The notes under the pieces were generated by a model that did not search any database, had not been told where the DNA came from, and saw only the letters and a program-made list of their open reading frames with translations. From Pseudobdellovibrionaceae bacterium (GTDB lineage Bacteria; Bdellovibrionota; Bdellovibrionia; Bdellovibrionales; Bdellovibrionaceae), in contig JAHBUU010000001.1 of assembly GCA_019637895.1 (NCBI GenBank), positions 1-58,871 of the forward strand: a stretch of 58,871 nt of DNA. Direction: 5' to 3'. The position numbers and the translations under genes are program-made. This document shows positions 1 through 58,260 of the stretch, one piece after another; the first letter of the stretch is position 1; each line of letters opens with the position of its first letter.

Positions 1-347
1 GTAAAGACGGCGTCATGGCCTTCGAACCCGGTTTCGTCAATGCCCAGCCGGGAGATACCGTCGTTTTCATCCCGACCGATCGGGCCCACAACTCCACTTC
101 CCATCTCGTCCCGGACGGAGCGAAACCTTGGAAAGGGAAGATGGATGAAAAGCTCACCGTCAAACTCGACAAAGAAGGCGTCTACATCTTCAAATGCGAT
201 CCGCACCTTCCCATGGGCATGGTCGGAGTCATCCAAGTCGGAAAAGCCGTCAACCTCGCTGCGGCCAAAGAAAAAGCGGATGCTCTGTCGAAAACCTTCG
301 CGATGAACAAAGACCGACTCTCGAAATACATCGGGCAGGTCAAATGA
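1..347 (+). CDS. pseudoazurin (type-1 blue copper protein), 5' end cut by window edge
   Basis: The frame is open from nt 3 (KDGV precedes the M at 15). 'FEPGFVNAQPGDTVVFIPTDRAHN' plus the copper-ligand loop 'KCDPHLPMGM' (Cys-x2-His-x4-Met) match pseudoazurins. Stop TGA at 345-347. Confidence 0.85.
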   Translation, partial: KDGVMAFEPGFVNAQPGDTVVFIPTDRAHNSTSHLVPDGAKPWKGKMDEKLTVKLDKEGVYIFKCDPHLPMGMVGVIQVGKAVNLAAAKEKADALSKTFAMNKDRLSKYIGQVK

Positions 348-514
348 GCCAACAGAAGCACGAGGAATCCTCCGAGGAGAACCTCCCCTCCTTTCAAAAA
401 CTCTATGACCGGCCTTTCCTGTGGCTCACATTGGGGATGATCGTGATGGTCGTCTTCTATACCGCCTGGGGAATCTTCGAAATGACGAATCTCACCAAGG
501 CGCCTCTTCCGTAG
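344..514 (+). CDS. small single-TM protein (56 aa), possible oxidase subunit IIa-like accessory subunit
   Basis: The ATG at 344 overlaps the pseudoazurin stop (ATGA). It has one hydrophobic helix, 'PFLWLTLGMIVMVVFYTAWGIF'. It sits directly before subunits II and I, like cbaD in Thermus cbaDBA. There is no sequence similarity I can vouch for. Confidence 0.45.
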   Translation: MSQQKHEESSEENLPSFQKLYDRPFLWLTLGMIVMVVFYTAWGIFEMTNLTKAPLP

Positions 515-529
515 GCCTCAGACTGGAGA

Positions 530-1087
530 ATGACGATGTCAGAAACAGAAAGCATGCATTCCGGGATTGTCCCCCCACAGGGCGTCTGGTGGAAAAACGT
601 CCCTCCCCAAGAGAAAGTCTGGATCACCATCGCCTTCGTGTGGTGCATGATCCTGTTCGCGATGATGCCGGTTTGGCACATTCGCGGCGGACAGAATCCC
701 TCGGGGATCCGTCACAAAGTGGACCCGGCGGCCTTTTTGGAAAGAACCGAACGCTTCGTCGAAGAGTACAAGATCGGCGAGGAATCGGGGATCCCGGTGG
801 TCGAGCCACCGCCCGGCTCTCATGTGTATCTCGTCGGCCGAATGTGGCAGTGGTACCCCGTCCTGAAACTGAAGAAAGGTGTCGAGTACACACTTCATCT
901 GTCGTCCATCGACGTCAACCACGGTTTCGCCCTGTTCCCGGTCAATATCAACTTCCAGGTCATTCCCGGTTACGACTACGGCTTAAAGATCACGCCGAAT
1001 CAATCAGGGGATTTCCGAATCATCTGTAACGAGTTTTGTGGAATCGGCCATCACATGATGGTCGGCAAGGTTCTCGTCGTCGACTGA
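530..1087 (+). CDS. heme-copper oxidase subunit II (CuA, ba3/B-family-like, single TM)
   Basis: CuA motif 'DVNHGF...ICNEFCGIGHHMM' (H...CxExCGxxHxxM). One N-terminal TM helix. The short ~185-aa architecture resembles Thermus ba3 subunit II, and 'QEKVW' resembles the ba3 'YEKGW' K-channel entry Glu. Confidence 0.9.
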   Translation: MTMSETESMHSGIVPPQGVWWKNVPPQEKVWITIAFVWCMILFAMMPVWHIRGGQNPSGIRHKVDPAAFLERTERFVEEYKIGEESGIPVVEPPPGSHVYLVGRMWQWYPVLKLKKGVEYTLHLSSIDVNHGFALFPVNINFQVIPGYDYGLKITPNQSGDFRIICNEFCGIGHHMMVGKVLVVD

Positions 1088-1103
1088 CATGAAGGAGCAG
1101 CGA

Positions 1104-2834
1104 ATGAGTGGCGCGATTGAAAGACTAAGTTCCCGGTTCAGAACCTGTGCCGTCACTGGACTGAAGGTCAATAAAGATTCTGAAAACCTGATCAAGGCCA
1201 ATGCGGTGATCGCCATCGTCTGCCTGCTGATCGGAGTCACGGCGGCCTTCGGGCTCGTTCTGACCCGATGGCAGACGGTGCACCTCTTACCCGCCGAGAT
1301 GTACTACCGGTTCCTGACTCTCCATGGAATGAACATGCTGATCTTTTTCATCATCTTCTTCGAAATGGCGATCCTGTACTTTGCAGGACCGGTGCTGCTG
1401 AATGCCCGGCAACCAACACCGAAACTGGGCTGGGCCGCCTTCGGATTGATGGTCATCGGGATGATCATGGTGAACGTCATGATCCTGATGGGAAAAGCCG
1501 ACGTGCTCTTCACGTCCTACCCTCCTCTGCAGGCGCATCCTTTGTACTATCTGGGCGTCATCCTGTTCGCCGTCGGTGCCTTGCTGGCAACTTCACTTTT
1601 CTTTGCGGCCCTTGTGGTCGCGAAGCGCGAAAAAACCTATAAAGGCAGCGTCCCCTTGGTGACCTTCGGAGCTACCACGGCGGCCATCATTGCCGTCATC
1701 ACTCTAGTTCATGGAGCCGCGACCTATATCCCGGCACTTCTGTGGTCCATGAACCTGATCGAGCTCGATGCTCAGCTTTATCGGCTTTTGTTCTGGGCCT
1801 TGGGACACTCCTCACAGCAGATCAACGTCGCCGCGATGGTGTCCGTCTGGTATCTGTTGGGTGGCCTCACTGTCGGCGCGGTGGTTCTGAACGAAAAAGT
1901 CAGCCGGACCGCCTTTGTCCTTTATATCCTGTTCATTTCCATGGCTTCGGCTCACCATCTTTTAGTCGATCCTGGTTTTGGTTCCGCTTGGAAAATCTGG
2001 AACACCAGCTATGCGATGTATCTGGCGGTTCTGGCCAGTATGGTTCATGGATTCACCGTTCCCGCCGGTCTTGAGATCGGTCAGCGACTGCGCGGTTTCA
2101 ATGCTGGAAAATTCGAATGGCTTCGCAAAGCTCCTTGGGGCGATCCTGGCTTCTCGGGCATGGTCCTGTCCGTGGTGATCTTCGGATTCCTCGGAGGAAT
2201 CACCGGCGTCGTCATCGGAACCGAGCAGATCAATATCATCGTTCACAATACGATGAGACTCCCCGGTCACTTCCATGCCACCGTCGCGGGCGGAACCGCT
2301 CTCGCCTTCATGGCCGTGACTTACTATGTCTTGCCTTTGATCTTCCAAAAACGAATTGCCTTCTGGAAGCTCGCAAAACTTCAGCCTTGGATTTTCGGTG
2401 GCGGCATGAGCTTGATGTGCATGTCCATGATCTACATGGGGATCTTTGGTGTTCCCCGTCGTCACTGGGACTCCTCTTTCTCGAACGCCCCTTTCTCGGT
2501 GGAATTCCATCCGGCGGTTTGGATCTCGCAAGCCTCCATGGGAGTGGGTGGTCTATTGGCCGCCAGTGGCGCTCTCTTGTTCGTGATCATCGCGGTCGTC
2601 ACGGTCTTCTTTGGGAAACCGCTCACCGAACAGGCGATCCGCGAAGGCGCCAGTGGGATTCCTCAAGGCGTGCTGAAACTTCCGGCCCAACTGCACGAAG
2701 GAGAAAAGGTCGTTGCCGTTCACAAAAAGGGCGCACCGGGAACGATGGTTTTGATCATGATCTTCTTTGCCTGCTTCGTTCTTTACTACTTCGTGAACTG
2801 GAAAATCCTCTCCTTCCTGTGGAAAGTGGGATGA
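1104..2834 (+). CDS. heme-copper oxidase subunit I, B-family (ba3-like) but lacking the cross-linked Tyr; candidate NO reductase-type HCO
   Basis: Heme and CuB ligands are present: 'LTLHGMN' (helix II His), 'GHSSQQ' (codons 1806-1820), 'SAHHLLVDPG' (1953-1958) and 'VHNTMRLPGHFHATV' (2268-2276). By eye it aligns along its whole length with Thermus ba3 CbaA. The ATG at 1104 has SD AAGGAG 6 nt upstream. An alternative in-frame ATG lies at 1089. Confidence 0.9.
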   Translation: MSGAIERLSSRFRTCAVTGLKVNKDSENLIKANAVIAIVCLLIGVTAAFGLVLTRWQTVHLLPAEMYYRFLTLHGMNMLIFFIIFFEMAILYFAGPVLLNARQPTPKLGWAAFGLMVIGMIMVNVMILMGKADVLFTSYPPLQAHPLYYLGVILFAVGALLATSLFFAALVVAKREKTYKGSVPLVTFGATTAAIIAVITLVHGAATYIPALLWSMNLIELDAQLYRLLFWALGHSSQQINVAAMVSVWYLLGGLTVGAVVLNEKVSRTAFVLYILFISMASAHHLLVDPGFGSAWKIWNTSYAMYLAVLASMVHGFTVPAGLEIGQRLRGFNAGKFEWLRKAPWGDPGFSGMVLSVVIFGFLGGITGVVIGTEQINIIVHNTMRLPGHFHATVAGGTALAFMAVTYYVLPLIFQKRIAFWKLAKLQPWIFGGGMSLMCMSMIYMGIFGVPRRHWDSSFSNAPFSVEFHPAVWISQASMGVGGLLAASGALLFVIIAVVTVFFGKPLTEQAIREGASGIPQGVLKLPAQLHEGEKVVAVHKKGAPGTMVLIMIFFACFVLYYFVNWKILSFLWKVG

Positions 2835-2835
2835 C

Positions 2836-3753
2836 GTGAAACTGTCAAAAGGGGCTCCCTATCTGATGATGATGGTCTGGATCCTGGGGACCCTTTTGTG
2901 GTGGGGGCTCGCTTTTTACCCGACGGGGGAACAAACTCCCGAATGGCTGAGTGTCGCGAGGAACGTCTGCTTCGGAGCGATGGATGGGGGCCTGCCCGAT
3001 CCGGCGGGATGGATCGTCCTGACTTTGGGTCCACTGTCTTTTCTGATTGTGGGTCTCGTGGCCTGGCCGAAAGAACTCGGAAAGGCGCTGCGAGGAACCT
3101 GGTCCTCAGGCCTTGGAAAAGTCCTTGCCGTGGTCCTTCTTTTTTCCATCGGAGTCGAGGCCCACTGGGTCCGCAGCAAACTCGCGACAGCCGCTCTCTA
3201 TGAAAATTTCAGCTACAAGAACTCTTCGTCGGAGGACCTGCCCATCGGCTATCCTCGCACGGATCGACCAGCTCCGGATTTCACTCTGGTGGATCAGAGC
3301 GGTTCCGCGTTCCGACTGGCTGAGCACTCGAAAGAGACGATCCTGTTGACCTTTGCCTTTGCCCATTGTGATTCCGTCTGCCCCGTCCTCGTTCGTCAGG
3401 TGTTGGATGTCGCAGAAAGCTTCAAAGGCGGCGTTCGCGTTGTCGTCCTGACTCTGGATCCTTGGCGGGATACTCCGAAATCCCTGCCCTATCTGGCGCA
3501 AGAGTGGGAGTTCCCGGCAAAGGCCCATCTTCTGTCAGGGCCGGTGGCGGATGTGACCGACGTTCTGAAAAATTATCAGGTGTCTTCTCAGCGCAACGAG
3601 AAGACCGGCGACATCATTCATCCGGCTCTGGTCTATGTGATCGCGCCGGGCGGACGAATCGCTTACACCTTTAACAATGCGCCGGACCAGTGGCTGCGTC
3701 AGGCGATCGAACGGATTGCAAACGATGGTCGCACTCATTCGGCATCTCGATAG
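2836..3753 (+). CDS. SCO1/SenC-family copper chaperone with N-terminal multi-TM extension
   Basis: Thioredoxin-fold Cu motif 'FAHCDSVCP' (CxxxCP) and the distal His in 'DIIHPALVYVI'. About 3 predicted TM helices precede the domain. GTG start 1 nt after the subunit I stop. Confidence 0.85.
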   Translation: MKLSKGAPYLMMMVWILGTLLWWGLAFYPTGEQTPEWLSVARNVCFGAMDGGLPDPAGWIVLTLGPLSFLIVGLVAWPKELGKALRGTWSSGLGKVLAVVLLFSIGVEAHWVRSKLATAALYENFSYKNSSSEDLPIGYPRTDRPAPDFTLVDQSGSAFRLAEHSKETILLTFAFAHCDSVCPVLVRQVLDVAESFKGGVRVVVLTLDPWRDTPKSLPYLAQEWEFPAKAHLLSGPVADVTDVLKNYQVSSQRNEKTGDIIHPALVYVIAPGGRIAYTFNNAPDQWLRQAIERIANDGRTHSASR

Positions 3754-5704
3754 GTTCTTCAACCGCCTTTTTTCATCCCGTTACAACCCGATCCATGCTT
3801 CGGGAACCGTCGCTCTGGGACTTTTTTTTATTGTCCTGATCACCGGTCTTTATCTGAGCTTTTTTTATCGGCTCGGTGAACCCTACGAATCCGTCGCAGC
3901 CCTGAATGCCGATCTTTTTTTTGGCTCCTGGATCCGGGCGGTGCATCGTTATGCTTCGGACCTCATGGCGATCTCTGTCGTCTTTCACATCCTCCGAATG
4001 GTCGCCCAAGGAAAAACTTGGGGTCCAAGAACTCTGGCCTGGGTCACTGGCGTTGGCCTTGTGGGCCTGATGCTGATTTCCGCCTGGACCGGCTATGTGA
4101 TGGTTTGGGATGTCCAAGGACAGGCTCTCGCCATCGCCGGAGCCCGAATCATGGATTCCCTGGGGCTCTTTCCCGACCCCATCATGCGTTCCTTCAGCGG
4201 CGCCGAGAATGCCGCAGCCTCTTTCTTTTTCCTGAATCTCTTTCTGCATGTCGCGATTCCTCTGGGGATGGTGTTCGGCGTCTGGGCTCACACCTCGCGA
4301 ATCGCCAGAGCTGACTGGCTTCCGAGTCGTGCCTTCATGGGGGGACTCAGCGCTTTGCTGATTCTCGTCTCTGTTGTCTGGCCCGCTCCGCTGGGGCAAA
4401 AGGCGGATCTTCTGCTCCGGGTCTCTGAGTATCCGAAAGACTGGATTTTCAATTTTTGGATGCCTTGGACAGAGAGTTCCCCTTTGGCGGTCTTTGCATT
4501 TTTTATTTTGGGTGGACTCGTGCTCGCTGCGGCTCCCTGGTATCTGAAACCCCGGGAAAAACGGAAACCTTCGTTCAATGATCCGAATATCTGCATGGGC
4601 TGTTCCCAATGTGTGCAGGACTGTCCCTATGAAGCCATTCAAATGGTGTCCATGGACGTTCGCTCAAAAATGAAAGAAGTCGCTCTGGTCAATCCCGATC
4701 TCTGTGTCAGTTGCGGACTTTGTGCGGCCTCTTGTGAACCGATGACGATCGGACCCGAGGGACGCAAAGGAGGCCATCAAGTGCGGGCCGCCAAGGCCTT
4801 TATGGCTTCTCTCAATGGAAACCTTGCCGGACAAACCTTGATCGTGGGCTGCCGAAACCAAAGTGGCGTTCTCAAATACCTGAACAACAGTTGTCGAACG
4901 ACGGCGGGCTATCAACTGTACCCGGTCGACTGCCCGGGCACACTTCATAGCGTCGTTTACGGCTTGCTGGCTCAGAAATTTTCAAGAGTGGTCATCGCCT
5001 CCTGCCCCGAGCGAATCTGCGTGAACAAGGATGGCTCCATGCTGCTCAACGAAAGGCTCAGCGGAAAACGAGAACCCACTCTGCCCGAAAGCTCTCTTCA
5101 GAAAAAGATCCATGTCTTTCCGGTGGGAGAGGGCGAAGAATCCGCCTTCTTCCGCAATATCAGCAGTGGTCGCGAACTTCCCGTCGCTCGCAAAGGACTT
5201 CGATCCATTCCAGCCTCGGCGATTGTCGCGGGCCTCGGGATTGTTCTGATCGCGGCCGTTCTCACTCGTTCGCCATCGCCCGCCATTTCCGACAAAGGAC
5301 TGCTGCGTCTCAATATCCGGCTCGTCGGTCAGACTGAAAAAACCTGCCGCCCCCCCTCCGCCGAAGAGACCGCAAAGCTCCCTCTGCATATGAGAGCCGC
5401 CGAGATTTGCAGCTATCGTTCTCTCAGCTACCGCATGAAGCTCAACATCGATGGCAAGGAGATCCTTGATGAACCCGTCCATCCAGGGGGGCTCAAACGC
5501 GACCGACCTCTTTATGTCAGTCGAGACATCGAAGTCGACAGCGGAACCCACCGGATCGAATTTTCGATGGAGCCGCTGGAGGCCAGCGCCCAAACCCTGA
5601 GCCTGGCTCTGCAGAAAAACGTTGAATTTCGACCAGGACAAATCGCTCTGATTCGCTACTCGCCCGATGAAAAGAACGCCGTTCTCAAGGAGAAAGCACC
5701 ATGA
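3725..5704 (+). CDS. fusion protein: di-heme cytochrome b (bc1/b6 N-terminal type) + 2x[4Fe-4S] ferredoxin + MvhD/FlpD-like domain + TM + C-terminal beta-rich domain
   Basis: Two His pairs are each spaced by 13 intervening residues: 'AVHRY..VVFHIL' and 'LFLHVA..VWAHTS'. Ferredoxin motifs 'CMGCSQCVQDCP' and 'CVSCGLCAASCEP'. MvhD-like pattern 'LIVGCRN...VDCPG...VVIASCPERICVNKDG'. A late TM helix 'AIVAGLGIVLIAAVL' is followed by ~150 aa. The start is uncertain (ATG 3725, or an upstream start at 3677). Confidence 0.8.
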   Translation: MVALIRHLDRFFNRLFSSRYNPIHASGTVALGLFFIVLITGLYLSFFYRLGEPYESVAALNADLFFGSWIRAVHRYASDLMAISVVFHILRMVAQGKTWGPRTLAWVTGVGLVGLMLISAWTGYVMVWDVQGQALAIAGARIMDSLGLFPDPIMRSFSGAENAAASFFFLNLFLHVAIPLGMVFGVWAHTSRIARADWLPSRAFMGGLSALLILVSVVWPAPLGQKADLLLRVSEYPKDWIFNFWMPWTESSPLAVFAFFILGGLVLAAAPWYLKPREKRKPSFNDPNICMGCSQCVQDCPYEAIQMVSMDVRSKMKEVALVNPDLCVSCGLCAASCEPMTIGPEGRKGGHQVRAAKAFMASLNGNLAGQTLIVGCRNQSGVLKYLNNSCRTTAGYQLYPVDCPGTLHSVVYGLLAQKFSRVVIASCPERICVNKDGSMLLNERLSGKREPTLPESSLQKKIHVFPVGEGEESAFFRNISSGRELPVARKGLRSIPASAIVAGLGIVLIAAVLTRSPSPAISDKGLLRLNIRLVGQTEKTCRPPSAEETAKLPLHMRAAEICSYRSLSYRMKLNIDGKEILDEPVHPGGLKRDRPLYVSRDIEVDSGTHRIEFSMEPLEASAQTLSLALQKNVEFRPGQIALIRYSPDEKNAVLKEKAP

Positions 5705-7041
5705 ATGGATCTCTCGCAAAGGCATGGGTTTCTCTGGGAGTGGTCGCTCTTCTCGCCAGCGGCTTGCTCGCGATCCTCGTCACCGGTGCCAAGATGCCGG
5801 GGGTGAAACATCTGGCGGACGTCGAGTTCATCCGGTGGTGCCTCGTGGTTCATGTTAACCTCGCGACACTGGTCTGGTTCACGGCCCTTCCCGTGGGTTT
5901 GCTGCATCTGTCAACGAAAGTGCGGGGTACCTTCAGCACACAGCTTTCCTGGGCAGGATTCCTGCTGGCACTGATCGGTATGCTGCTCTTGTTCAGCGTT
6001 CCCCCTCAAGAGGGTGTCCGCCCCATTCTGTCTAACTACATTCCTGTTCTCAGTCACCCCCGTTACTCCATCGGGATCGCCGTCTATCTGGCGGGCATTG
6101 CTCTTGGCCTGCTGTCTCCGAAGTTTTTTGTCGACTCTTTTTCCATCGCGAAAAGATGGCCAGGCCTGCTGGAAATTCGCTTTGGCCTTTTTGTCGGTTC
6201 AACCTTTATCGGCCTGGCCATTGTCACCCTGGCTCTTGCTTTCAAGGATCTCGCTTCGGTTCCATTGATTTCGGAGTTTCGTTTTTTTGAACTGGGAATG
6301 TGGGGAGGTGGGCACTTGATTCAGCACGCCTCGGCTGTTTTCACGGTCTGCGCCTGGGTGCTTTTTTTGTCACGACGAGTGGACCAACCGATTCTTTCTC
6401 GCTCTGAACTCTTTGTGGTCTTTGGGTGGATCGGCCTGCCGATCTTTTTTGTCCCCGTCATTCTGTTCTTCGATGTCACGGGTGGCGATTACAGACAGGG
6501 CTTTACCTGGCTGATGCAGTGGGGAATCGCACCACCGATTGTCTTTTTTCTCGGCCGAGCCCTTTGGCGCCTTTCTCCGCGTCTGTCCGACTTGAAAAAT
6601 CACGAGATCGTTGCTTTTTTTCTAAGTGCCTCACTTTTGCTGATGGGTTTCGTCTTCGGAGCTTTCATCCGCGGACCCGATATGCGGGTTCCGGGTCACT
6701 ATCATGCCAGCATCGGCGCCGTGACTCTTGCTTTTATGGCCCTGGGATATCTCCTGCTAGCCGACCGAGCAGAGAGCCGCTGGATGCTGAAGTCCATGTG
6801 GTTCTACGGTGTCGGCCAAGCGGTTTTTGCAGGGGGAATGTTCCTGGCTGGTTCCTTCGGAATGCCACGGAAAACCTATGGGGCTGAACACGTCTTCACG
6901 CATTGGGGACAGGGTCTCGGTGTCGCCGTGATGGCCATCGGTGGGATGGGTGCTCTCATCGGTGGAATCCTTTTTGCGGTGGCGATCATTCCTCGCTTGA
7001 AATCGACGGCGCCTCTGGCCGGGAAGGTGGCTCATGTCTAA
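5701..7041 (+). CDS. divergent, shortened heme-copper-oxidase subunit I paralog (446 aa) lacking the helix-VII His-His CuB ligands
   Basis: It retains 'LVVHVNLATLVWF' (helix II His, codon 5851), 'VPGHYHASIGAVTLAF' (HxH, 6697-6705) and 'MPRKTYG'. Helix VI reads 'WGGGHLIQH' (His 6313, His 6325). No HH motif is found where ba3 has 'GFHHQFADPG'. The ATG overlaps the upstream stop (ATGA). Confidence 0.7.
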   Translation: MNGSLAKAWVSLGVVALLASGLLAILVTGAKMPGVKHLADVEFIRWCLVVHVNLATLVWFTALPVGLLHLSTKVRGTFSTQLSWAGFLLALIGMLLLFSVPPQEGVRPILSNYIPVLSHPRYSIGIAVYLAGIALGLLSPKFFVDSFSIAKRWPGLLEIRFGLFVGSTFIGLAIVTLALAFKDLASVPLISEFRFFELGMWGGGHLIQHASAVFTVCAWVLFLSRRVDQPILSRSELFVVFGWIGLPIFFVPVILFFDVTGGDYRQGFTWLMQWGIAPPIVFFLGRALWRLSPRLSDLKNHEIVAFFLSASLLLMGFVFGAFIRGPDMRVPGHYHASIGAVTLAFMALGYLLLADRAESRWMLKSMWFYGVGQAVFAGGMFLAGSFGMPRKTYGAEHVFTHWGQGLGVAVMAIGGMGALIGGILFAVAIIPRLKSTAPLAGKVAHV

Positions 7042-8029
7042 GTCTAAAAAACTGCTGTGGTTGCTGAGTCTGCTCATCATGCTTTTTTCCATGGTCGCTG
7101 TGGGCGGCATCACCCGACTGACAAAGTCCGGTCTGTCGATCACCGAATGGCGACCGGTCACAGGCACGCTGCCACCCCTGTCGGAAGAAGCCTGGCAAAA
7201 AGAGTTCGATCTTTATCGCAGCTCGCCCGAATTTGAGCACCACAACAATCATTTCGAACTCGAAGATTACAAAGGCATTTTCTGGTGGGAATATCTTCAC
7301 CGCCTGTTGGGACGGGTGATCTTTTTCACCGCGACGGTCATGGGCTTTGTCTTTTGGCGGAAGAAAGAATTCTCGGGCAAACGCGCTCTGCTTTTGCCGG
7401 CCTTGATCGCCTTTCAAGGGCTGATTGGCTGGCTGATGGTCAAGACGGGGCTCAATCACCGCCCCTCTGTCAGCCATTATATGCTCGCGGTTCATTTTCT
7501 ACTGGCTCTGCTCACCATGAGCGTCGTCTATCATTCCCTTGCAAAGATGAAACAGCCTCTGGTTGTGAAGCTTTCAACGAAGGGCCGTTTCTTGATCGGT
7601 TTGCTGGGAGGCTTGATCCTGCTGCAGATCCTTTATGGCTGCTTCACCGGAGGCCTGAGAGCGGGGCTTTACTTCAATACGTTTCCTTTGATGGATGGCC
7701 GCGTGCTCCCTCCTCAAGGCTGGGATCTGGTTCCCGGCTTTCGAAATCTTTTTGAAAACCCCATCACCGTGCAGTGGATCCATCGATGGTTGGGCATTGG
7801 CCTTGCCGTCATTCTTCCCCTTGTGAGCTTTCATCTGCTCCGGTGCGAAAGCCCAGCGTTCAAAAGACCGATCCTGCATTTGGTGAGTGTCGTCGTCATC
7901 CAAGTCCTCTTGGGAATCTCGACCTTGCTCTTTCTGGTCCCGGTGCCCCTCGCCGTCTTTCACCAAGCGATGGCCGCCCTGATCTGGCTGGGCTATTGCA
8001 ATCTGATCTTCCGAATCAAGACCCCCTAG
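7034..8029 (+). CDS. ctaA: heme A synthase (COX15/CtaA family)
   Basis: 'VGGITRLTKSGLSITEWRPVTG' is the typical COX15/CtaA N-terminal signature. It is a multi-TM protein with conserved His residues ('YLHRLLGR', 'HFLLAL', 'IHRWLG', 'FHQAMA'). It overlaps the upstream gene by 8 nt. Confidence 0.85.
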   Translation: MSKSKKLLWLLSLLIMLFSMVAVGGITRLTKSGLSITEWRPVTGTLPPLSEEAWQKEFDLYRSSPEFEHHNNHFELEDYKGIFWWEYLHRLLGRVIFFTATVMGFVFWRKKEFSGKRALLLPALIAFQGLIGWLMVKTGLNHRPSVSHYMLAVHFLLALLTMSVVYHSLAKMKQPLVVKLSTKGRFLIGLLGGLILLQILYGCFTGGLRAGLYFNTFPLMDGRVLPPQGWDLVPGFRNLFENPITVQWIHRWLGIGLAVILPLVSFHLLRCESPAFKRPILHLVSVVVIQVLLGISTLLFLVPVPLAVFHQAMAALIWLGYCNLIFRIKTP

Positions 8030-29718: not shown

Positions 29719-30600
29719 TCAGCAGGGAATCAGCGTCTCTTCAAGATCGGACGGAGGAGGCTCGCTCCAGAGGGAAAGGGCATATCCACCCCCACCGCTT
29801 CCCGTCGGCTTGACCGCCACAGCGCCCGCCTGTTTTAGCCGTTCCAGATGTTGTTGGACCGCGCCTTCCGAAAGCCCCCAGTCCTCGAAACAGGAACCGG
29901 CATTTTGAATGGAGGAAATCAACAGCGACAAGCCATCCCTTTCATCCATCGACAGAGCCCGTTCACAATCTTGAGCCGCCTGACTCATGCGTGCATCAAG
30001 CTCGCGGCCTTTTTCAGGATTCTCTTCGATCAAGCGCTTCACTTTGTTGACGGCATCCGAGGTGATCCCTCGCTGACCGGTGTAGGAAATGAACCATCGC
30101 GGATTCCATTTAGGGACGACGGCAAACTGCCGCCCCTCCCGTTCAAAATGCAAACCTTCGCCGCTGATCGCAACCGCGATATCCACGCCCGAGCTTTCAC
30201 CATGGAACAGATTTTCGAGCGTTCGTGCGAACTCGGCCAGTTCCGGCGATTTCAGGTGACCCAGGTGATGAAACCAACGGGTCATGGCGACACAAAAGGC
30301 CGCCGAGGCTCCAAGGCCCGCGCCGATGGGAATCCTCGACTCAATTTGCAAGCGACCCTTCAAGAGACTCCGAGGAATTCTGATCAGATCACAGGCTCGC
30401 TCAAGCACGGCCCAGAACAAAGGCTCCAGCTCGGACCCATTGCTCCCGCGAAATTGAACCGCCAAGGGGCCTTCGCCGTCTTCATGGGAAATCTTCATCG
30501 AACGGGACTTCAACGGAAAAACCAGGGCCGGACTGCCGCGCAAGACGGCGTGTTCTCCGGCCAGAATCCATTTCCCGAAAGACTCCGTGTGAAAGGACAT
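29719..30600 (-). CDS. mvk: mevalonate kinase (GHMP kinase)
   Basis: 'GKWILAGEHAVLRGSPALVFPL', GHMP motif 'IPIGAGLGASAAFCVA', 'KPTGSGGGGYAL'. Last gene of the mevalonate operon. Confidence 0.75.
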   Translation of the reverse strand: MSFHTESFGKWILAGEHAVLRGSPALVFPLKSRSMKISHEDGEGPLAVQFRGSNGSELEPLFWAVLERACDLIRIPRSLLKGRLQIESRIPIGAGLGASAAFCVAMTRWFHHLGHLKSPELAEFARTLENLFHGESSGVDIAVAISGEGLHFEREGRQFAVVPKWNPRWFISYTGQRGITSDAVNKVKRLIEENPEKGRELDARMSQAAQDCERALSMDERDGLSLLISSIQNAGSCFEDWGLSEGAVQQHLERLKQAGAVAVKPTGSGGGGYALSLWSEPPPSDLEETLIPC

Positions 30601-31563
30601 TTACTTAAGACCTCGCCACGAGGTGAAGGTCATGTGCTTTTTGCGGAAGTGCTCGATCATTTTGTCAGCCAGTTCCCGCTGATCCGCTCGGAACAGCAAA
30701 TGCACATTCGGTCCCGCATCCATCGTGACCAAAGGTCCATCGCCTTTGTGATTCCAAATGTGCTGACAGGCATCCGTCACATCCGAAGACTCTTTCGTCC
30801 GGTATTTGAAAGGCACGGCACTGGTTTCAAACAGTTCGTGCATATCGATAAACTCGTCCCGGCACAGACGATAGCTTTCGGACCAGTTGCGTTCTTTCAA
30901 AGCACTCGTCAGATCCCGGAGGCGTTGATGAGCCCGATCCACACGGCCTTCGAATCGAGGGCTGCTCGTCACTCGCACGTGAGCATCGCTGGACGAGACT
31001 TCTTTGACGCCCGCACTGATCACGACCGCCGCATGCAAAAGATCCGGATAGCCAAGATCCACAGCCTCGGCTCCTTCGTTTTCCCAAAGAGCCCAAGGCG
31101 CAAAGAAAGAACGACAGGACGAGCCCGAGCCCTTACGGGACAGAACGGACAATTCTTCGGGCGAAGTTCTGACGCCGGTTTTTTGCTCGCGCAGATGAGC
31201 CGCCGCCTGAGTCAGGGCCGCAAAGCTCGAGGCCGAGCTGGCCAGTCCGCAGTCCGAAGGAAAGTTGTTCGCAGACTCAATTCGGTAATGGCCCGAGAGT
31301 CCCCAAGCCTGCTTGAGCCGTTCAAAATGACCCAAGAATTTGCTTCGTCCTTTTTCCGACAACTCCGGAGCCGCAAAGCCCTTCAGCTCCAGGGGCGCCC
31401 ACTGATCTTGGTCGCCGTCGATCTCGTGCAGATGAACTTCCGTCACCAGATGAGGCAAGGTGTAGGACAGAGACGCATTGGTCGGTTTGTTCCCGGTCCC
31501 TTCGATTTTTCCCATGTACTTGATGAGCGCGATATTGGACGGAGCCTGACCTTTGATCATCAC
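30601..31563 (-). CDS. mvaD: diphosphomevalonate decarboxylase
   Basis: 'APSNIALIKYMGK...NASLSYTL', 'NFPSDCGLASSASSFAAL', 'SGSSCRS', 'TMDAGPNVHLL'. Confidence 0.85.
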   Translation of the reverse strand: MMIKGQAPSNIALIKYMGKIEGTGNKPTNASLSYTLPHLVTEVHLHEIDGDQDQWAPLELKGFAAPELSEKGRSKFLGHFERLKQAWGLSGHYRIESANNFPSDCGLASSASSFAALTQAAAHLREQKTGVRTSPEELSVLSRKGSGSSCRSFFAPWALWENEGAEAVDLGYPDLLHAAVVISAGVKEVSSSDAHVRVTSSPRFEGRVDRAHQRLRDLTSALKERNWSESYRLCRDEFIDMHELFETSAVPFKYRTKESSDVTDACQHIWNHKGDGPLVTMDAGPNVHLLFRADQRELADKMIEHFRKKHMTFTSWRGLK

Positions 31564-32501
31564 AAACTTGCTCCCGGCAATTCCGACCCTTTCAAAGGAA
31601 CCGGTGATTCCACCTTTAGCTCCAGACCGCGAGTCGAAGCTTCGCGGACATTCACGATTTCAAATTCGTGCTCCTGAGCCCAGATCTCGAAAAACCGACG
31701 GACATTTTTTTCGATGAGGACAAAGATCACGTCAGCCCCCATGGCTCCGCAGCCCTTCGCTCCCCTCACCCCATTCAACCAGAACAGGTTGTGCAGAATA
31801 TCGAGGGTGCTTTCGGCGACCTTGCCCTGTTTTGCCAAGGCTTTCCCATAGGCAGTGATGGATTCGCCGAAAAGATCGGCGTTCGAGGTCGCCCAGGCTT
31901 CTTTGATTTTTTCCATGAGCGGCGCCAAGGCCGAAAAATCGGTTTCCGTCAGATTCTTGAGGTGTTCATGGGTCGCGACCTTCACTCTGGTTTTCATCAG
32001 AAAACCGTCGTAATTTTCAAAGGGCCAGGCCTTCTGAGTGATCATGCCCGCGTTTTTTTCGAAGAAGGTGAATCCACCTTTGAGCTGTCCGATCATATCC
32101 GCACCCGATGGTGCGCGTCCCTGTCCGTTCCAGGCGTCTTTGCGATACTCATCCAAAAGCACTTTGGTATCGAGTTCCGCCTCGGCCTCGAGATTCGAAG
32201 CCTGCTTCCAGGAATACAGGGCAAAGACGGACAGATACTGGGCGGTCGAAGCCCCCCAGCCTCCGGCCCCTTGATGCGGATCCTGGAATTCAAGTTTCAG
32301 ATTGGAAAAGAAATCCTGATGCCGAGTCATGAATTTCGAAGCCGGCGATCCCTCAGGAATCCCCGTCGCCTCGCCGTGGCCTTCACTCACACGAAGCTCG
32401 AAGCGAGGCTCCGTCATCGACAAAAGGGTCAAGCCTCCATCAAGAGCGAGGTATTCACCTGCGAGAAAAGCTTTGCCTGGAACGGAAAATACAAGTGCCA
32501 C
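31560..32501 (-). CDS. phosphomevalonate kinase (GHMP kinase)
   Basis: 'PGKAFLAGEYLALDGG' (PMK-type N-terminus), 'GAGGWGASTAQY', 'GAKGCGAMGADVIFVL'. Assigning it as PMK rather than MK rests on the N-terminal motif only. Confidence 0.7.
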   Translation of the reverse strand: MALVFSVPGKAFLAGEYLALDGGLTLLSMTEPRFELRVSEGHGEATGIPEGSPASKFMTRHQDFFSNLKLEFQDPHQGAGGWGASTAQYLSVFALYSWKQASNLEAEAELDTKVLLDEYRKDAWNGQGRAPSGADMIGQLKGGFTFFEKNAGMITQKAWPFENYDGFLMKTRVKVATHEHLKNLTETDFSALAPLMEKIKEAWATSNADLFGESITAYGKALAKQGKVAESTLDILHNLFWLNGVRGAKGCGAMGADVIFVLIEKNVRRFFEIWAQEHEFEIVNVREASTRGLELKVESPVPLKGSELPGASL

Positions 32502-32513
32502 GAAGAGCCTCCG

Positions 32514-33809
32514 TTAGAGCGGAGGACGGGACGCTCGCAACTCCTTGAGCACCTCGACCGCATTGCTGAGCGAGATGCGCTTGCGGATGGCAAGGATCTC
32601 CTCCAGTTTCTTGACCATACCGGGAAGTTCCTTTTCCTCGGCGCCCGCGCCGAGCGCGAGATTTTTGATGTGCAATTTCATATGGCCTTCGATGATTCCC
32701 ACCGTGGTGAGAGCCCGAAGTGCACCCAGATTCTGAACCAATCCAACCGAGGCGAGGATGCGCGAAAGCTCGTTCGCGGATTTCGCACCAAGGATGTTCA
32801 TCGCGGTTTTCGCCGTCGGATGAAGGGCTGTCACACCACCCACGGTTCCCACAACCAAAGGCGCCTCAAGAACGCCCGTCAGCGTTCCGTCTTGATAAGT
32901 CCATTTAGTGATCGAACGGTACTGACCATCGCGGGAAGCATAGGCGTGAACACCCGCTTCGACGGCGCGCCAGTCATTGCCGGTCGCAATCAAGATCGGA
33001 TCGATCCCGTTCAAGACGCCTTTGTTGTTGGTCGCGGCCCGATAGGGATCGAGCTGCGCGAACAAAGAGGCCTCTTCGATCTTGCGACCGAGTTCTTCGT
33101 CGATTTTCATTTTCACGGTGGCCCGAGTGACCTTGGTGTCCACCAAGTTCGAAAGGATGCACATCGTGACTTTTTCGCCGGTGAAGCTTTCGATCGGATC
33201 TTTCAGGAATTCACAAACCTGATTGATGATGTTCGCCCCCATGGCGTCGCAGGGATTCATGTGAACGTGGATCACGGCCATGCTGATGCCATCGGGACGA
33301 GGCAAGTGCCGGACCTTGATGTCAGAAACACCACCGCCACGACGGACGAGTCCAAAGGCCACCTCACGGTTCGCCAGATCGATCAGATAGTTTTTTTGTT
33401 CGAGGATGGCTTTTTCAAAGGCCGCAAAATCGCGGACCTTCGCCAGCTGGATCTGTCCGATGATGTCGGTGCCGATCACTTCGGTCGTGATCTCGCCGTT
33501 TTCCCGGATCCACTTGGCTGTTTTGCTGGCGGCGGCCACGATCGAGGTTTCCTCGACGGCCATGGGAATCACGACGTCTTTGCCATCGATCCGAAAGTTG
33601 GTGGCAACACCCATAGGAAGCTGGAACCAGCCAATGACGTTTTCGATGAATTTCTCACCGAGAGCCATGTCGCGCAGTCCGCCCTTTTCCAGGTAGGCGG
33701 ATTCTTCCGGCGTCAAAACTCCGACCTCTTGCAGAGCCTTTAAGCGCTGCAAACGATCCAGTTTCGAAAAACCTTTGAAGATCTCCGTCAGTGTTTTCGC
33801 CATGTCCAC
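32514..33809 (-). CDS. mvaA: hydroxymethylglutaryl-CoA reductase, class II
   Basis: ~430 aa and soluble. 'ENVIGWFQLPMGVATNFRIDGKDVVIPMAVEETSIVAAAS', 'DAMGANIIN', 'GGV' and 'GHMKLH' regions match class II (P. mevalonii-type) HMGR. Confidence 0.9.
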   Translation of the reverse strand: MDMAKTLTEIFKGFSKLDRLQRLKALQEVGVLTPEESAYLEKGGLRDMALGEKFIENVIGWFQLPMGVATNFRIDGKDVVIPMAVEETSIVAAASKTAKWIRENGEITTEVIGTDIIGQIQLAKVRDFAAFEKAILEQKNYLIDLANREVAFGLVRRGGGVSDIKVRHLPRPDGISMAVIHVHMNPCDAMGANIINQVCEFLKDPIESFTGEKVTMCILSNLVDTKVTRATVKMKIDEELGRKIEEASLFAQLDPYRAATNNKGVLNGIDPILIATGNDWRAVEAGVHAYASRDGQYRSITKWTYQDGTLTGVLEAPLVVGTVGGVTALHPTAKTAMNILGAKSANELSRILASVGLVQNLGALRALTTVGIIEGHMKLHIKNLALGAGAEEKELPGMVKKLEEILAIRKRISLSNAVEVLKELRASRPPL

Positions 33810-34831
33810 TTCTCCCGGAGTTCCGACGGGGTTTTGGATCCCGTGCAGAACAAAGCGACTTTCAATTCATACTCGATGCGATCCGCGAAGGCGGCCAAAG
33901 CAGCCATCGGCTCTGGCAGCATCACCGCCTGCAACCACGGCTGGGCCAAACCCACCATCTCTGCACCGAGCGACATCAATTTTGCCACGTCGAGGCCGTT
34001 TCTCACACCCCCCGACGCCCAGAGTTGATACCTCAGGGGAAGCTCTTTGGCATTCATCATCGATTGGACTGTAGAAACACCCCAATCGGCAAAGACGGAA
34101 CCGGACTGCGAGCGCCAATCGGATTCATTGATTCTTAGAGTTTCGACTCGACCCCAATGGGTCCCACCACGTCCACTGACGTCCACCGCGTAAATCCCGG
34201 TGTTCTGTAGGCGTTCTAGAGTCGGTCGCGAAAAGCCCGAGCCGGTCTCTTTCACGATCACCGGAACGGGACAAGCCTTCACCAGAGCTTCAAGAGCCCG
34301 GAGTCCCCCTCGGAAATGGGGTGTTCCTTCCAGTTGAAGAACCTCTTGCAAGGGATTGAGATGAATGAAAATTCCAGAGGCCTGGAGATTCTCGATGAGT
34401 CGCAGCACCGGTTCCGGCCCCGCCTCGATCAACTGGGCGATACCCAAATTCCCGATCAAGACGGCACGAGGAGCCTCCGAGCGGATTTTTTTCCACTCTT
34501 GGGCGGCCATCCCGTTCAGGAGTTCTTTGCGCTGGGAGCCGACACCCATCACAAGGCCGCGTTCCTGGGCAAAGACCGCCAGACGACGATTCATTTCCTC
34601 ACCATGCTCGTGACCAGCGGTCATCGAACTGATGAAAAACGGAACGGACAAAGTGTGTTGCTGAAATTTGGTTCTGAGGTCGAGATCGGAAAAATCGAGA
34701 TCGGGAAGGGCTTCATGCAGAAGCTCGATCGATTCAAGGCCGGCAGAGAGTTCCGACTGAGCCTTGGAATCAAGCGCGATCCGAATGTGATCGCGCTTTC
34801 TTTGTTCAAATTGGGGATCTTGCTCCGCCAT
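33788..34831 (-). CDS. fni: isopentenyl-diphosphate delta-isomerase, type 2 (FMN-dependent)
   Basis: 'FEQRKRDHI', 'ISSMTAGH', 'MGVGSQR', 'VIVKETGSG', 'VDVSGRGGTHW', 'ASGGVRNGLDVAK'. The ATG at 34831 has SD GGAGG upstream; an alternative ATG lies at 34846. Confidence 0.9.
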   Translation of the reverse strand: MAEQDPQFEQRKRDHIRIALDSKAQSELSAGLESIELLHEALPDLDFSDLDLRTKFQQHTLSVPFFISSMTAGHEHGEEMNRRLAVFAQERGLVMGVGSQRKELLNGMAAQEWKKIRSEAPRAVLIGNLGIAQLIEAGPEPVLRLIENLQASGIFIHLNPLQEVLQLEGTPHFRGGLRALEALVKACPVPVIVKETGSGFSRPTLERLQNTGIYAVDVSGRGGTHWGRVETLRINESDWRSQSGSVFADWGVSTVQSMMNAKELPLRYQLWASGGVRNGLDVAKLMSLGAEMVGLAQPWLQAVMLPEPMAALAAFADRIEYELKVALFCTGSKTPSELREKWTWRKH

Positions 34832-34849
34832 TCCTTGCCTCCACATTCG

Positions 34850-51408: not shown

Positions 51409-51409
<1 letters not shown>
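50882..51409 (-). CDS. actD: alternative complex III subunit ActD (DUF3341)
   Basis: 'FDAITPYPVHGMEEAVG' plus two TM helices. It is coupled on both sides by overlapping start and stop codons. Confidence 0.8.
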
Positions 51410-52772
<1,363 letters not shown>

Positions 52773-52776
<4 letters not shown>

Positions 52777-55700
52777 GCGTGTTCACCTTCTCCGTGAGCC
52801 TTTTCATGACGGGCATCTTTCCCGTTGTTGCGAATCTTCGTGAGATAACGAACAGCCGGAGCCGCGTTCCACTCTTCGAGGAGCAGATAAGCGCGTTCTT
52901 TTTTGAACATCTTCGAGACTTCGGAGTTTGGATCGTTCATATCCCCGAAGACGATTCCGCCAGATGGGCAAGCCGTCTGACAAGCCGTCTTGATCTCGCC
53001 GTCTTTCAACGGACGGTTTTCCTGTTTCGCTTGGTTCACACCCGCTTTGATCCGCTGAACGCAGAACGTGCACTTTTCCATGACCCCACGGGTCCGGACG
53101 GTGACTTCTGGGTTCAAAGCCATGTTCAACGGCTTTTCGATATCTTTGGTGTAGTTGAACCAGTTGAAGCGACGAACTTTGTACGGGCAGTTGTTCGAGC
53201 AGTAACGAGTTCCGACGCAGCGGTTGTAAACCATCGCGTTCAAACCGTCGTCCGTATGGACTGTGGCAAGAACCGGGCAAACCGTTTCGCAAGGAGCGTT
53301 GTCACAATGCTGACACAACATTGGTTGGAAAACCGTTTCGGCATTTTCCGGCGTGCCGACATAGTAACGGTCGATCCGCAACCAATGCATCTCGCGGCCC
53401 TGCAGAACGTATTTCTTGCCGACGACCGGGATGTTGTTCTCGGATTGGCAGGAAACCACGCAGGCGTTACAGCCTGTGCAAGAGTTCAGATCGATCGCCA
53501 TTCCCCATTTGTGCCCGTTGTATTGGTGACCGGACCACAAAGACCAGGCGTGATGGCGGTGGATGTTGGCGTCTTTTTTCTTTTGGTACTCTTTCAAAGT
53601 CGCTTCGACAACGATCTGACGACCTTCCATCGAGTGGTGACCTTGCGGATTCGCCAGGCTTTCCTTGCGACCCGTTTTCTTGATTTCAACTTTGGCACCG
53701 GCGGCAATCGCCTGCCCGTTCACAAAAGACAGGAACGGATACAGATTGCGTCCCACACCATTGGCAATTTTGCCCGCGTGAGTCCGGCCGTAACCGATCG
53801 CAACGGTCAGAACCTCATCGTGCAGACCCGGTTGAACGTTCACCGGCAGGTCGATCTTTTTATCGCCGACCGTGATCTCGATGACGTCGTTCGCCTTGAG
53901 ATTGTGTTTCTTGGCAAAGCCGATCGAAACGCTGGCGTAGTTATCCCAAGTGATCTTGGTGACGGGATCCGGGATCTCGTGCAGCCATGAAGCATTGGTG
54001 GCAGAGCCATCCCCCATCGTCACCGTCGGATAAAGAACCAATTCAGTGAAGTCGGACGCTTTGCCCGGCTTGATGGACGAGAAGGAATCCGCACGGAACG
54101 AACGTGCCCCGGCGCTATTCGGAGTCCCCACGAAGCCCTTTTGCAGAGCTTCACTCCAGAAGGCTTCGAAGCCCATGCCGCGTCCATATTTAGGAGCGAC
54201 CTCTTCGCGCCAAACGGTACGAACGTAGTCATAGAAAGTTTCGCTGTTTCTCAGGCGAGCCGGACCGACTTCGGCCAAACGAGCCCAGTTCATCAGAGCA
54301 GTTTGGAACGCACGGGTTTCGTACATTGGACGGATTGTCGGCTGTTGGATCATGACGACGCCGGCGACCGGCTCGGCATCTCCCCATGATTCAAGAGCGT
54401 GGTTGTCCGGAATGATGTAGTGAGCTTCGCCCGCCGTTTCGTCGACGCGATCAGCGGTCGAAACGACCATTTCAACTTTACGAACGGCTTCCGAGAAACC
54501 GTGTTCAGAGGAAAGGACATAACCTGGGTTCACGTTGTGCATGATGAGGGTTTTGACTTTGCCCTCTTTCATGTCCTTGATGAGCGTCAGGAGGTCGGCC
54601 CATGAGCCCTTCAGGCCTGGGTTCCCGCCCCGTCCTTCGACGGTCTTGCCGTCGTTTTCCAGAACGGAGTTCAAAAGATTGACCGCGATCTGGAGTTCAG
54701 TCGCTTTGGAAGTCAGGGTCGGCAAACCGCCCGCAACAACCAAGGATTGACCGCGTTTGTCCCACAGGTCTTCAGCAATCTGAGTCAGCAACGCAGGCTC
54801 GATGCCCAAGCGAGCGGCCGCACCGGCACCCGACTCGATCACGGATTTAACAGAGCCGTTTCCTGCATAAGAAGAACGACCTTTTTTCACCACGATCTCG
54901 TGCAAGAGGCCGAGAACGACATCCAATTGCTGCGACGGCTTGATTCGAACACGGATATCCGCATTCGCACCGGTCAGGGAGTAATTGGAATCAAAGACCA
55001 CCAAACGGGACATGGTTTCCGGTTCTTTACGACCTTCGGAGAACTGTTTCGAGAAGGTCATCGGCATCAGCCAAGCACCCAGGAAATCCGCATCGACGGA
55101 AACGATCATTTTCGCTTTGTCGAAACGATAGAATGGGATGCTGTCGTCGCCGTAAGAAGCTTTTTGTCCCTGACGAATTTCTTCGTGCGAGAGAGGTTCG
55201 AAAACCACGTGGCGAGCATTGAACGCCTGGCAGAAATCACGAATGACCGCCTGATTGGCGGGTCCCGTGACCGCGCCGGTCAAAACGACGGCTTGGCCTT
55301 TTTGCAGTTGTTTGGAAACTTCGCCGTCCATCGCATCCCAAGAGGTGCCGATGGTGTCTTTGTTCGTGCGTTTTTCGTTGAACAAGTTTTTACGAGGACC
55401 GCGCAAGCGCTCTGGATCGTAGAGGTTCAGGATCGAGCTTTGACCCTTGATCGAAACACCGCAGTTCAAAGAGTGATCGCCGTGGCCTTCGATCTTGATC
55501 GGACGGCCTTCGCGGGTTTTCACCAACAAGGCCATCGCTTCAGAGCCGTCGAAGTGGACCGAGCTGTAGTAGTTCGGAACGCCGAGGACGACTTCTTCGG
55601 GCTGTTTGTTATAAGGAACGATTTTTTGAACGGGACGGCGGATGCAGCCCGCGCTCGCCATTGCGAGCGACGCTCCCATGAGTTTCAGGAAGTCACGGCG

Positions 55701-55895: not shown

Positions 55896-55903
55896 CTTAT
55901 CCC

Positions 55904-58258: not shown

Positions 58259-58260
58259 TT

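Follow-up and report, generated by a model that had tools for sequence, protein, structure and literature searches.

The window (the whole stretch of DNA analysed here, 58.9 kb in length) encodes at 1104..2834 (+) the catalytic subunit I of an HCO in which a tyrosine of the ba3-type active site is missing, and this raises the question of what such an enzyme reduces and to which HCO family it belongs. The 576-aa product matched Pfam COX1 at 5e-65 and found its best solved match in the ba3 oxidase of Thermus thermophilus (PDB 1EHK, 1XME, 3S8F), residues 65-467 of the query aligning with residues 57-459 of ba3 subunit I at an E-value of about 1e-46 (phmmer, PDB) and about 25-30% identity. The AF2 model (pLDDT 85) points the same way, as the predicted structure adopts a B-family fold with TM scores of 0.76-0.80 to B-family oxidases (Foldseek); these are the nearest solved structures to subunit I by sequence as well as by fold, and the 13-helix layout of ba3 is retained. 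ATG 1104 is the true start of the gene, having AGGAG 7-8 nt upstream and giving the length of 576 aa that the homologues share; ATG 1089 was rejected as a start.

An earlier note on this DNA had read the protein by eye as collinear with Thermus ba3 CbaA, and every residue statement it made is borne out by the phmmer and MAFFT alignments. All six metal and haem histidines of ba3 (H72, H233, H282, H283, H384 and H386) are kept as H74, H235, H284, H285, H389 and H391, which are invariant, and the ligand columns further show the HFH stretch and the arginine pair R449/R450 as RR. The helix VI motif H235-S-S-Q238-Q239 is encoded at 1806..1820 (+) and lies within 1791..1832, which translates to FWALGHSSQQINVA. 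Its H235 serves as the first ligand of CuB/FeB, and in the phmmer alignment ba3 FWWTGHPIVYFW stands over FWALGHSSQQINV of subunit I, so that GHPIVY of ba3 becomes GHSSQQ, the column of the cross-linked Tyr237 is occupied by Gln239 and Val236 is likewise replaced by Gln. A ba3-type B-family O2 reductase was therefore ruled out, as the GHPxVY cross-link motif is missing and Gln stands in the Tyr column. The databases annotate homologues as "cbb3-type oxidase", and this C-family identity was also ruled out. Counting six positions back from the HH pair leads to Ile278 (VLYILFISMASAHH) and not to the helix-VII Tyr of cbb3-type enzymes, which is absent, as the note had stated, and subunit I is paired with a CuA subunit II in place of CcoO/CcoP. 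Tyr274, at position -10 from the HH pair, is not conserved. Together with the statement that no migrated active-site Tyr is reported for the eNOR family (PMC11214002), the sequence argues for an active site that would have no tyrosine nearby.

The channel residues are partly kept, again as had been noted, with S309 and T315 of ba3 conserved as S312 and T318, and Y248 (as Y250) is retained in addition. T312 is replaced by an invariant His and Y244 by Val, and the proton path of subunit I is thus not identical to that of ba3. The conserved K-channel-like residues may nevertheless serve as a proton path.

A ba3-type oxidase copy in decay, no longer functional, would also be expected to lose its catalytic tyrosine, but we attach virtually no weight to this reading: the ORF is uninterrupted over its 576 codons, homologues in many phyla are 65-94% identical, the operon is conserved, and the residues of the haem, metal and CuA sites and of the channel do not vary. 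More than 555 relatives occur in genomes spread over many phyla. The motif GH[SG][SA]QQ[IV]N was present in 240/240 homologues among the matches listed, comprising 120 close homologues (72-94% identity) and 120 relatives of the T. roseum homologue, with the QQ motif in 120/120 of each set. Q238, Q239 and N241 were invariant columns in a 43-sequence alignment reaching down to 43% identity. Such conservation shows selection on the Tyr-to-Gln substitution, as opposed to chance or decay, and already contradicts a pseudogene.

As the residue at the position of the cross-link tyrosine is Y in O2 reductases, E in cNOR and qNOR, N in sNOR and Q in eNOR (PMC8756737, Table A4), and Gln at this position has served as the eNOR diagnostic (Hemp & Gennis 2008; PMC8756737), subunit I is placed in the known eNOR family. 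The subfamily that the earlier note had left unnamed can therefore be named (PMC8756737, section 2.7.1 and Table A4), and its proposal of a Tyr-less B-family derivative, probably an alternative NO reductase, finds support in the B-family structures being nearest and in a tyrosine that appears replaced and not relocated. The novelty it implied did not stand, as the description of eNOR dates from 2008 and its biochemical validation from 2024 (PMC11214002). The region 344..8029 very probably constitutes an eNOR-type nitric oxide reductase operon, whose subunit I would be a B-family-derived HCO that has lost the His-Tyr cofactor for O2 splitting. The likeness to eNOR extends to the three His metal ligands, the CuA subunit II, the B-family-like K-channel with its Ser309 equivalent and the presence of CtaA and Sco1 in the operon; the CuA subunit, the K-channel-like residues, SenC and haem A synthase are all consistent with the assignment. 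Subunit I is in this respect an ordinary, mis-annotated member of an already described family, and the locus leaves the current understanding of eNOR unchanged. The window protein, whose homologues databases carry as cbb3-type oxidases, is most likely an N2O-producing NO reductase, and genes of this type regularly escape inventories of denitrification and N2O sources.

The eNOR of Rhodothermus marinus reduces NO with a kcat of 0.68 NO/s and does not reduce O2, and eNORs use haem As, with CtaA encoded in many of their operons (PMC11214002). NO reductase activity of the window protein is predicted by analogy, the NO-only activity and haem As being data on the R. marinus enzyme; ba3, in contrast, reduces O2. 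The tie to the R. marinus and M. magnetotacticum enzymes runs through the diagnostic residue and shared taxa and not through a direct alignment. In a simple NJ tree the Gln-type proteins were monophyletic with moderate support (22/22, bootstrap 66) and separate from the classical ba3 oxidases, and GHxxQY sequences that retain the Tyr branched at the base of the Gln clade (support 74). The clade includes the T. roseum, Chloroflexi and Ardenticatenales homologues as well as homologues from Thermus plasmids, and eNOR has been reported from Chloroflexi/Ardenticatenales and from Thermus (PMC4653789; PMC8756737). In the Thermus homologue His386 is replaced by Lys (MAFFT), which matches the His/Lys ligation of the low-spin haem in some eNORs (PMC11214002). 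Among the matches listed for the T. roseum homologue there were Chloroflexi and no Rhodothermus. WP_015717644.1, cited as an eNOR in PMC8756737, was not among the three Thermus plasmid homologue records, which bear other accessions.

Other B-family-derived NOR families were also weighed. A SenC gene followed by a further membrane ORF, as found in the window, resembles norSY-senC-orf1, the sNOR cluster of ammonia oxidisers, and sNOR and bNOR are likewise Tyr-less B-family derivatives with a CuA subunit. However, both have Asn where subunit I has Gln, bNOR sharing the sNOR active site (PMC11214002), and sNOR is without the Ser309 equivalent that is kept here as Ser312. In gNOR an Asp replaces one metal-ligand His and subunit II is without CuA ligands, whereas the window enzyme keeps all of these and is thus not a gNOR. 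The nNOR type has a cNOR-like His3+Glu site and a His/Met low-spin haem; it is excluded here by the Gln at the site and the His74/His391 pair. Membership of sNOR, bNOR, gNOR or nNOR instead of eNOR is accordingly very improbable. The cNOR and qNOR enzymes share the overall reaction and a non-Tyr residue at the same H+4 position, but their Glu ligates FeB, a cytochrome c subunit or quinol takes the place of CuA, and they are C-family related, lack a cytoplasmic proton channel and are distant kin of subunit I.

The genes around subunit I were compared with the 80 closest MAG relatives of the protein (genome-contig scan; some counts use 83 loci). A pseudoazurin, a blue-copper electron carrier, is encoded at 15..347 (+) with its 5' end cut by the window edge (TIGR02375 6e-37, above cut-off; Pfam Copper-bind), and a full-length 155-aa orthologue occupies the same place in a 93%-identical relative (L001). 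It is likely the periplasmic electron donor, though with 1/80 related loci carrying it the gene is not a core part. It is followed by a small single-helix membrane protein of 56 aa (344..514, +), without a Pfam or NCBIfam match, that immediately precedes subunit II in 71/80 of the related loci. From its position and the single TM helix of subunit II, it may be an analogue of ba3 subunit IIa. The eNOR subunit II (530..1087, +; Pfam COX2) combines one TM helix with a CuA cupredoxin domain, as in ba3, and its CuA ligands (H, C, C, H, M) were kept in 81/81 aligned sequences, as was the counterpart of Glu15, the channel-entry residue of ba3-II. A SCO1/SenC copper chaperone with N-terminal membrane helices is encoded at 2836..3753 (+; Pfam SCO1-SenC 3e-20), directly downstream of subunit I in 75/80 related loci. 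The haem A synthase CtaA/COX15 (7034..8029, +; Pfam COX15-CtaA 6e-92) was found within 8 kb in only 4/80. Its occurrence here is a matter of gene presence, and the haem type of the window enzyme follows only by analogy.

These components suggest a route for the reaction. Electrons would pass from a periplasmic carrier, probably the upstream-encoded pseudoazurin or a cytochrome c, to CuA of subunit II, then to the low-spin haem held by His74 and His391 and on to the binuclear site, which would consist of a high-spin haem on His389 and a non-haem metal, Cu or Fe, on His235, His284 and His285. There 2 NO would be converted to N2O + H2O, a reaction that needs two electrons and no Tyr radical, and the invariant Gln238, Gln239 and Asn241 may line the distal pocket in place of the tyrosine. 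The protons would probably be drawn from the cytoplasm along a K-channel-like route formed by the subunit II Glu, His315, Ser312, Thr318 and Tyr250, and with cytoplasmic uptake the reaction would be electrogenic. For maturation, SenC would supply copper and CtaA haem A.

A Tyr-less HCO may also carry out other chemistry, such as slow O2 reduction, peroxide reduction, NO dismutation or N2O reduction. The subclade at 65-94% identity is known from sequence, with no purified member, the window protein is 45-53% identical to the isolate homologues found, and NO dismutase or N2O reductase functions have been proposed for other Tyr-less HCO families (PMC11214002). We regard such chemistry as improbable, because the active-site motif is identical throughout the Gln clade, the characterised eNOR reduced NO and not O2 (PMC11214002), and the neighbourhoods of related genes, which contain nirK, nirS and nosZ, fit NO as the substrate. 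Within 8 kb, nirK-type genes occurred in 17/83 and nirS in 6/83 related loci, adjoining genes of this kind being a further likeness to eNOR; one related locus formed a complete nnrS-crp-eNOR-nirK-nosZLDFY island, and the Thermus locus adjoins a multicopper oxidase, an Rrf2 regulator and DUF542.

With NO reduction as the preferred chemistry, the role that it plays in the host may still differ. Instead of energy-conserving denitrification, the enzyme could serve to detoxify NO or protect against it, for example where prey or neighbours are a source of NO under microoxic conditions. This is a tentative possibility, somewhat short of an even chance; a detoxification role was also raised in the F. 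straubiae preprint. No nir, nar or nos genes were found in the 58.9-kb window or in the 7 kb upstream in L001, the closest relative. The rest of the window has an aerobic Bdellovibrionota-type look, with trypsin-like proteases, a mevalonate pathway and ACIII-like genes, and CtaA is O2-dependent (PMC11214002). On the other hand, the view covers 58.9 kb of the genome, a nitrite reductase gene lies beside the cluster in 23/83 related loci, and the conserved K-channel-like path together with the subunit II Glu suggests energy coupling.

Apart from the host, a Bdellovibrionota-like organism in whose genome eNOR is now placed with an active-site motif uniform across phyla, the locus differs from the eNOR family as described in two further genes. 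The first (3677..5704, +) encodes a membrane fusion protein made up of a di-haem cytochrome b, 2x[4Fe-4S], a weak FlpD/MvhD-like region and a C-terminal domain of ~170 aa with unknown function; the ORF overlaps senC at its end, which leaves the start codon uncertain. It matched Pfam Cytochrome_B (5e-15) as well as Fer4 families, and the FlpD match was weak (E 0.013), FlpD being precomputed for the homologues. The window subclade adds this fusion regularly, in 66/80 related loci, and the make-up II-I-Sco1-cyt b/Fe-S matches that of the eNOR operon reported for F. straubiae (preprint). The second gene (5701..7041, +) encodes a very divergent HCO subunit-I paralogue of 446 aa, whose Pfam COX1 score (34.2 bits) falls narrowly short of the cut-off. 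Both haem His sets are retained in it, together with a single CuB His, and the HH pair is missing; the AF2 model of the paralogue (pLDDT 93.8) has the HCO fold. The paralogue was confined to a minority of the subclade, with 5 true orthologues in the 80 related loci; it lay within Gln-type eNOR clusters in 6/6 look-ups and was found nowhere else, and no description of the family was found in the literature searched.

Both the fusion and the CuB-less paralogue could bear on the connection of eNOR to the respiratory chain. The two-subunit eNOR might be only the core of a larger membrane module in which the fusion and the paralogue link NO reduction directly to the quinone pool or to a redox partner in the cytoplasm, or in which the paralogue is a haem-bearing assembly or scaffold subunit, an arrangement that we put forward as speculative and rather unlikely. 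The C-terminal domain of the fusion shares 34% identity (6e-23) with a 165-aa protein encoded by a gene of its own in 27/83 loci, and the "eNOR scaffold protein" named in the F. straubiae preprint may correspond either to the HCO paralogue or to this 165-aa protein.

The haem-copper oxidoreductase (HCO) subunit I encoded at 1104..2834 (+) lies in a row of eight tightly packed genes, all on the forward strand at 1..8029 of the window. These encode pseudoazurin (15..347, 5' end cut by the window edge), a single-helix ORF of 56 aa (344..514), a COX2-type cupredoxin representing subunit II (530..1087), subunit I itself, SCO1/SenC (2836..3753), a 675-aa cytochrome b/2x[4Fe-4S] fusion (3677..5704), a second, very divergent HCO-like protein of 446 aa (5701..7041) and haem A synthase CtaA (7034..8029). 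The start of subunit I was placed at the ATG at 1104 on the basis of an AGGAG 7-8 nt 5' of it and the homologue length of 576 aa. Its best match among all PDB chains was subunit I of the Thermus thermophilus ba3 O2 reductase (about 1e-46, phmmer), with which it was collinear over residues 65-467, ba3 FWWTGHPIVYFW being placed above window FWALGHSSQQINV, a peptide borne out by translating 1791..1832. MAFFT alignments of subunit I with ba3 and diverse relatives provided the residue equivalences and reproduced every residue statement of the earlier note (ba3 numbering). The metal and haem ligands H72, H233, H282/H283 and H384/H386 are retained, the cross-link Tyr is absent with both Y237 and V236 replaced by Gln (also in phmmer and the translation), and Ile occupies the position six residues before the HH pair where the cbb3-type alternative Tyr would lie. 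Among the K-channel analogues S309 and T315 are retained, T312 is His and Y244 is Val; the equivalents of Y248 and R449/R450 are retained too.

A direct residue criterion for this position is available in PMC8756737, whose Table A4 (after Hemp & Gennis 2008) assigns Tyr to O2 reductases, Glu to cNOR/qNOR, Asn to sNOR and Gln to eNOR. The eNORs are derived from the B family and possess a CuA subunit II, a K-channel-like proton path with the Ser309 equivalent retained and haem As, CtaA genes being frequent in their operons (PMC11214002). The purified R. marinus eNOR reduced NO at 0.68 NO/s at 25 °C and did not reduce O2 (PMC11214002). The eNOR characters that can be read from sequence and gene content were found in the window protein and its operon, which supports the proposal in the earlier note of a Tyr-less B-family derivative acting as an alternative NO reductase, and by the Gln criterion the subfamily that it left unnamed is most likely eNOR. 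Judged from sequence, the Tyr to Gln feature is the hallmark of this already known family, although the window protein is linked only indirectly to the enzyme purified from R. marinus. Assignment to sNOR/bNOR was rejected as these need Asn at the Tyr position, where the window protein has Gln, and the defining features of gNOR (Asp-for-His and no CuA) and nNOR (Glu plus His/Met) were not found in it. An AlphaFold2 model of subunit I (pLDDT 85, pTM 0.88) matched best the B-family oxidases A. aeolicus 7DEG and Thermus ba3 (TM 0.76-0.80); the PDB copy compared contained nothing closer and hence no structure of an eNOR.

The Gln motif is conserved. GH[SG][ST]QQ[IV]N was present in 120/120 of the best clusters (72-94% identity) among more than 8000 related to subunit I. 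When one genome per species was scanned, at least 555 relatives were found; the top 80 (65-93% identical) belonged to MAGs assigned to Bdellovibrionota, Gemmatimonadota, Methylomirabilota, Acidobacteriota, Eisenbacteria, Verrucomicrobiota and others, and the nearest (93-94%) was a Pseudobdellovibrionaceae MAG. In a 43-sequence alignment reaching down to 43% identity, G234, H235, Q238, Q239, N241, Y250, H284, H285, S312, H315, H389, F390, H391, R452 and R453 were invariant, and in subunit II the CuA ligands were conserved in 81/81 sequences, as was the residue corresponding to ba3-II Glu15. A pseudogene is ruled out by this conservation, and the Gln substitution, as read from the alignments, is more than chance.

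In cultured organisms, tblastn against plasmids identified homologues in Defluviimonas sp. (53%), a Thermomicrobium roseum megaplasmid (48%) and Thermus thermophilus megaplasmids (45-48%), all far closer to subunit I than ba3 is and all carrying the QQ motif (MAFFT). Proteins related to that of T. roseum come from Chloroflexi, Ardenticatenales among them, a group from which eNOR has been reported (PMC4653789; PMC8756737), and the Gln-type ingroup of PMC8756737 includes one Thermus and one Rhodothermus profundi protein. In the Thermus homologue at locus L083, the sole Thermus copy aligned, the second low-spin haem His is Lys, which agrees with the His/Lys ligation noted for some eNORs (PMC11214002). 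In a neighbour-joining tree built from 51 sequences and 538 columns (100 bootstraps), the 22 Gln-type sequences formed a single clade (bootstrap 66%), at whose base sequences that retain the Tyr, with GHxxQY[VI]N, made up a grade (combined group 74%). As the classical GHPxVY B-family enzymes including ba3 stand apart from this clade, subunit I is in this tree not nested among O2-reducing ba3 oxidases, the placement that the earlier note had regarded as contrary to its reading. Both the Gln at His+3 and the His of the channel occur in the basal grade and so seem older than the loss of Tyr. The nearest Tyr-retaining relatives (50%-identity representatives P0127, P0128, P0129 and P0143) combine GHxxQY[VI]N with His at ba3 T312. 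A separate odd HCO group (P0172, P0189, P0193, P0262 and P0264) carries FHV[NY]HY on helix VI, with Tyr for the first His of the HH pair and for the proximal haem His (ba3 H384), the latter being Arg in P0262.

Across 80 related loci a conserved module was determined, comprising the small ORF (71), subunit II (80), subunit I (80), SenC (75) and the cytochrome b-Fe-S fusion (66); the eNOR operon in the F. straubiae preprint contains eNOR II and eNOR I together with haem O synthase, Sco1 and cytochrome b/[Fe-S] proteins. In 23/83 loci a nitrite reductase gene is no more than 8 kb away (17 of NirK-cytochrome c type, 6 NirS). One JGI metagenome contig of 1.26 Mb (L089:1-19374) harbours a complete denitrification island of nnrS, a crp-family regulator, hemerythrin, the eNOR cluster with a CuB-less paralogue, a NirK-cytochrome c fusion, SCO, cytochrome c and nosZ-L-D-F-Y, and at another locus the eNOR cluster adjoins nirS and d1-haem genes. 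The T. thermophilus megaplasmid copies (L083:7983-9668 and L092:5983-7665) adjoin multicopper oxidase, cytochrome c, an Rrf2 regulator and DUF542, with a cytochrome P460 gene additionally at L083, which is an NO-related neighbourhood. Together these nirK, nirS, nos and Thermus surroundings support NO as the substrate; a different chemistry for subunit I is unlikely and found no positive support.

For NO reduction, electrons would pass from pseudoazurin or cytochrome c through CuA and the low-spin haem to the high-spin haem/non-haem metal (Cu or Fe) site, where 2 NO + 2 e- + 2 H+ -> N2O + H2O, which in the family literature does not require a Tyr radical, would proceed. The invariant Gln238, Gln239 and Asn241 would shape the distal pocket, and proton uptake via the K-channel-like path would render the reaction electrogenic. 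Among the 80 loci, pseudoazurin (15..347, +) directly 5' of the eNOR genes was restricted to the window and its 93%-identical relative L001 (1/80), which suggests a lineage-specific electron donor.

With the eNOR hallmark itself already known, the accessory genes are the sole part that may be new. The fusion at 3677..5704 (+) joins a di-haem cytochrome b to 2x[4Fe-4S], a weak FlpD/MvhD-like region and, at the C-terminus, a domain of ~170 aa. In 27/83 loci this domain is a stand-alone gene of ~165 aa that lacks a Pfam match. The fusion may connect with quinol or with a cytoplasmic redox partner. The 446-aa product of 5701..7041 (+) is a member of a coherent family with 12 TM helices and an HCO fold (predicted model of the window protein, pLDDT 93.8), which comprises at least 117 full-length sequences (32-82% identity). 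Invariant features of this family are the helix II His, WGGGHxxQ, PxHYH and RK; the HH pair (CuB) is absent throughout it, so that a two-haem, CuB-less protein is predicted. Besides the window copy, the paralogue occurs at L088:9001-10437, L089:9001-10374, L090:4677-6125 and L094-L096:8001-~9500. It lay inside a Gln-type eNOR cluster in all 6 of the 6 contigs looked up, as well as in the window and five related loci; in the loci looked up it was found only within such clusters, mostly as the first gene. No description of this family was found in the literature searched.

As nir/nos genes are absent both from the 58.9-kb window and from 7 kb of upstream sequence in the closest relative, the role of eNOR in the source organism could be detoxification instead of respiration. 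The rest of the window encodes housekeeping genes, trypsin-like proteases, the mevalonate pathway and ACIII-like genes, a content that fits a Pseudobdellovibrionaceae-type organism. At 29719..34846 (-) are GHMP kinases, diphosphomevalonate decarboxylase, HMG-CoA reductase and an FMN-dependent dehydrogenase-like gene, mevalonate pathway genes that fit a Bdellovibrionota-type genome. The regions 51409..55916 (-) and 56609..58294 (-), which encode an NrfD-like membrane protein, a 1047-aa Fe-S protein and a cytochrome c assembly protein, look like an alternative complex III-type cluster.
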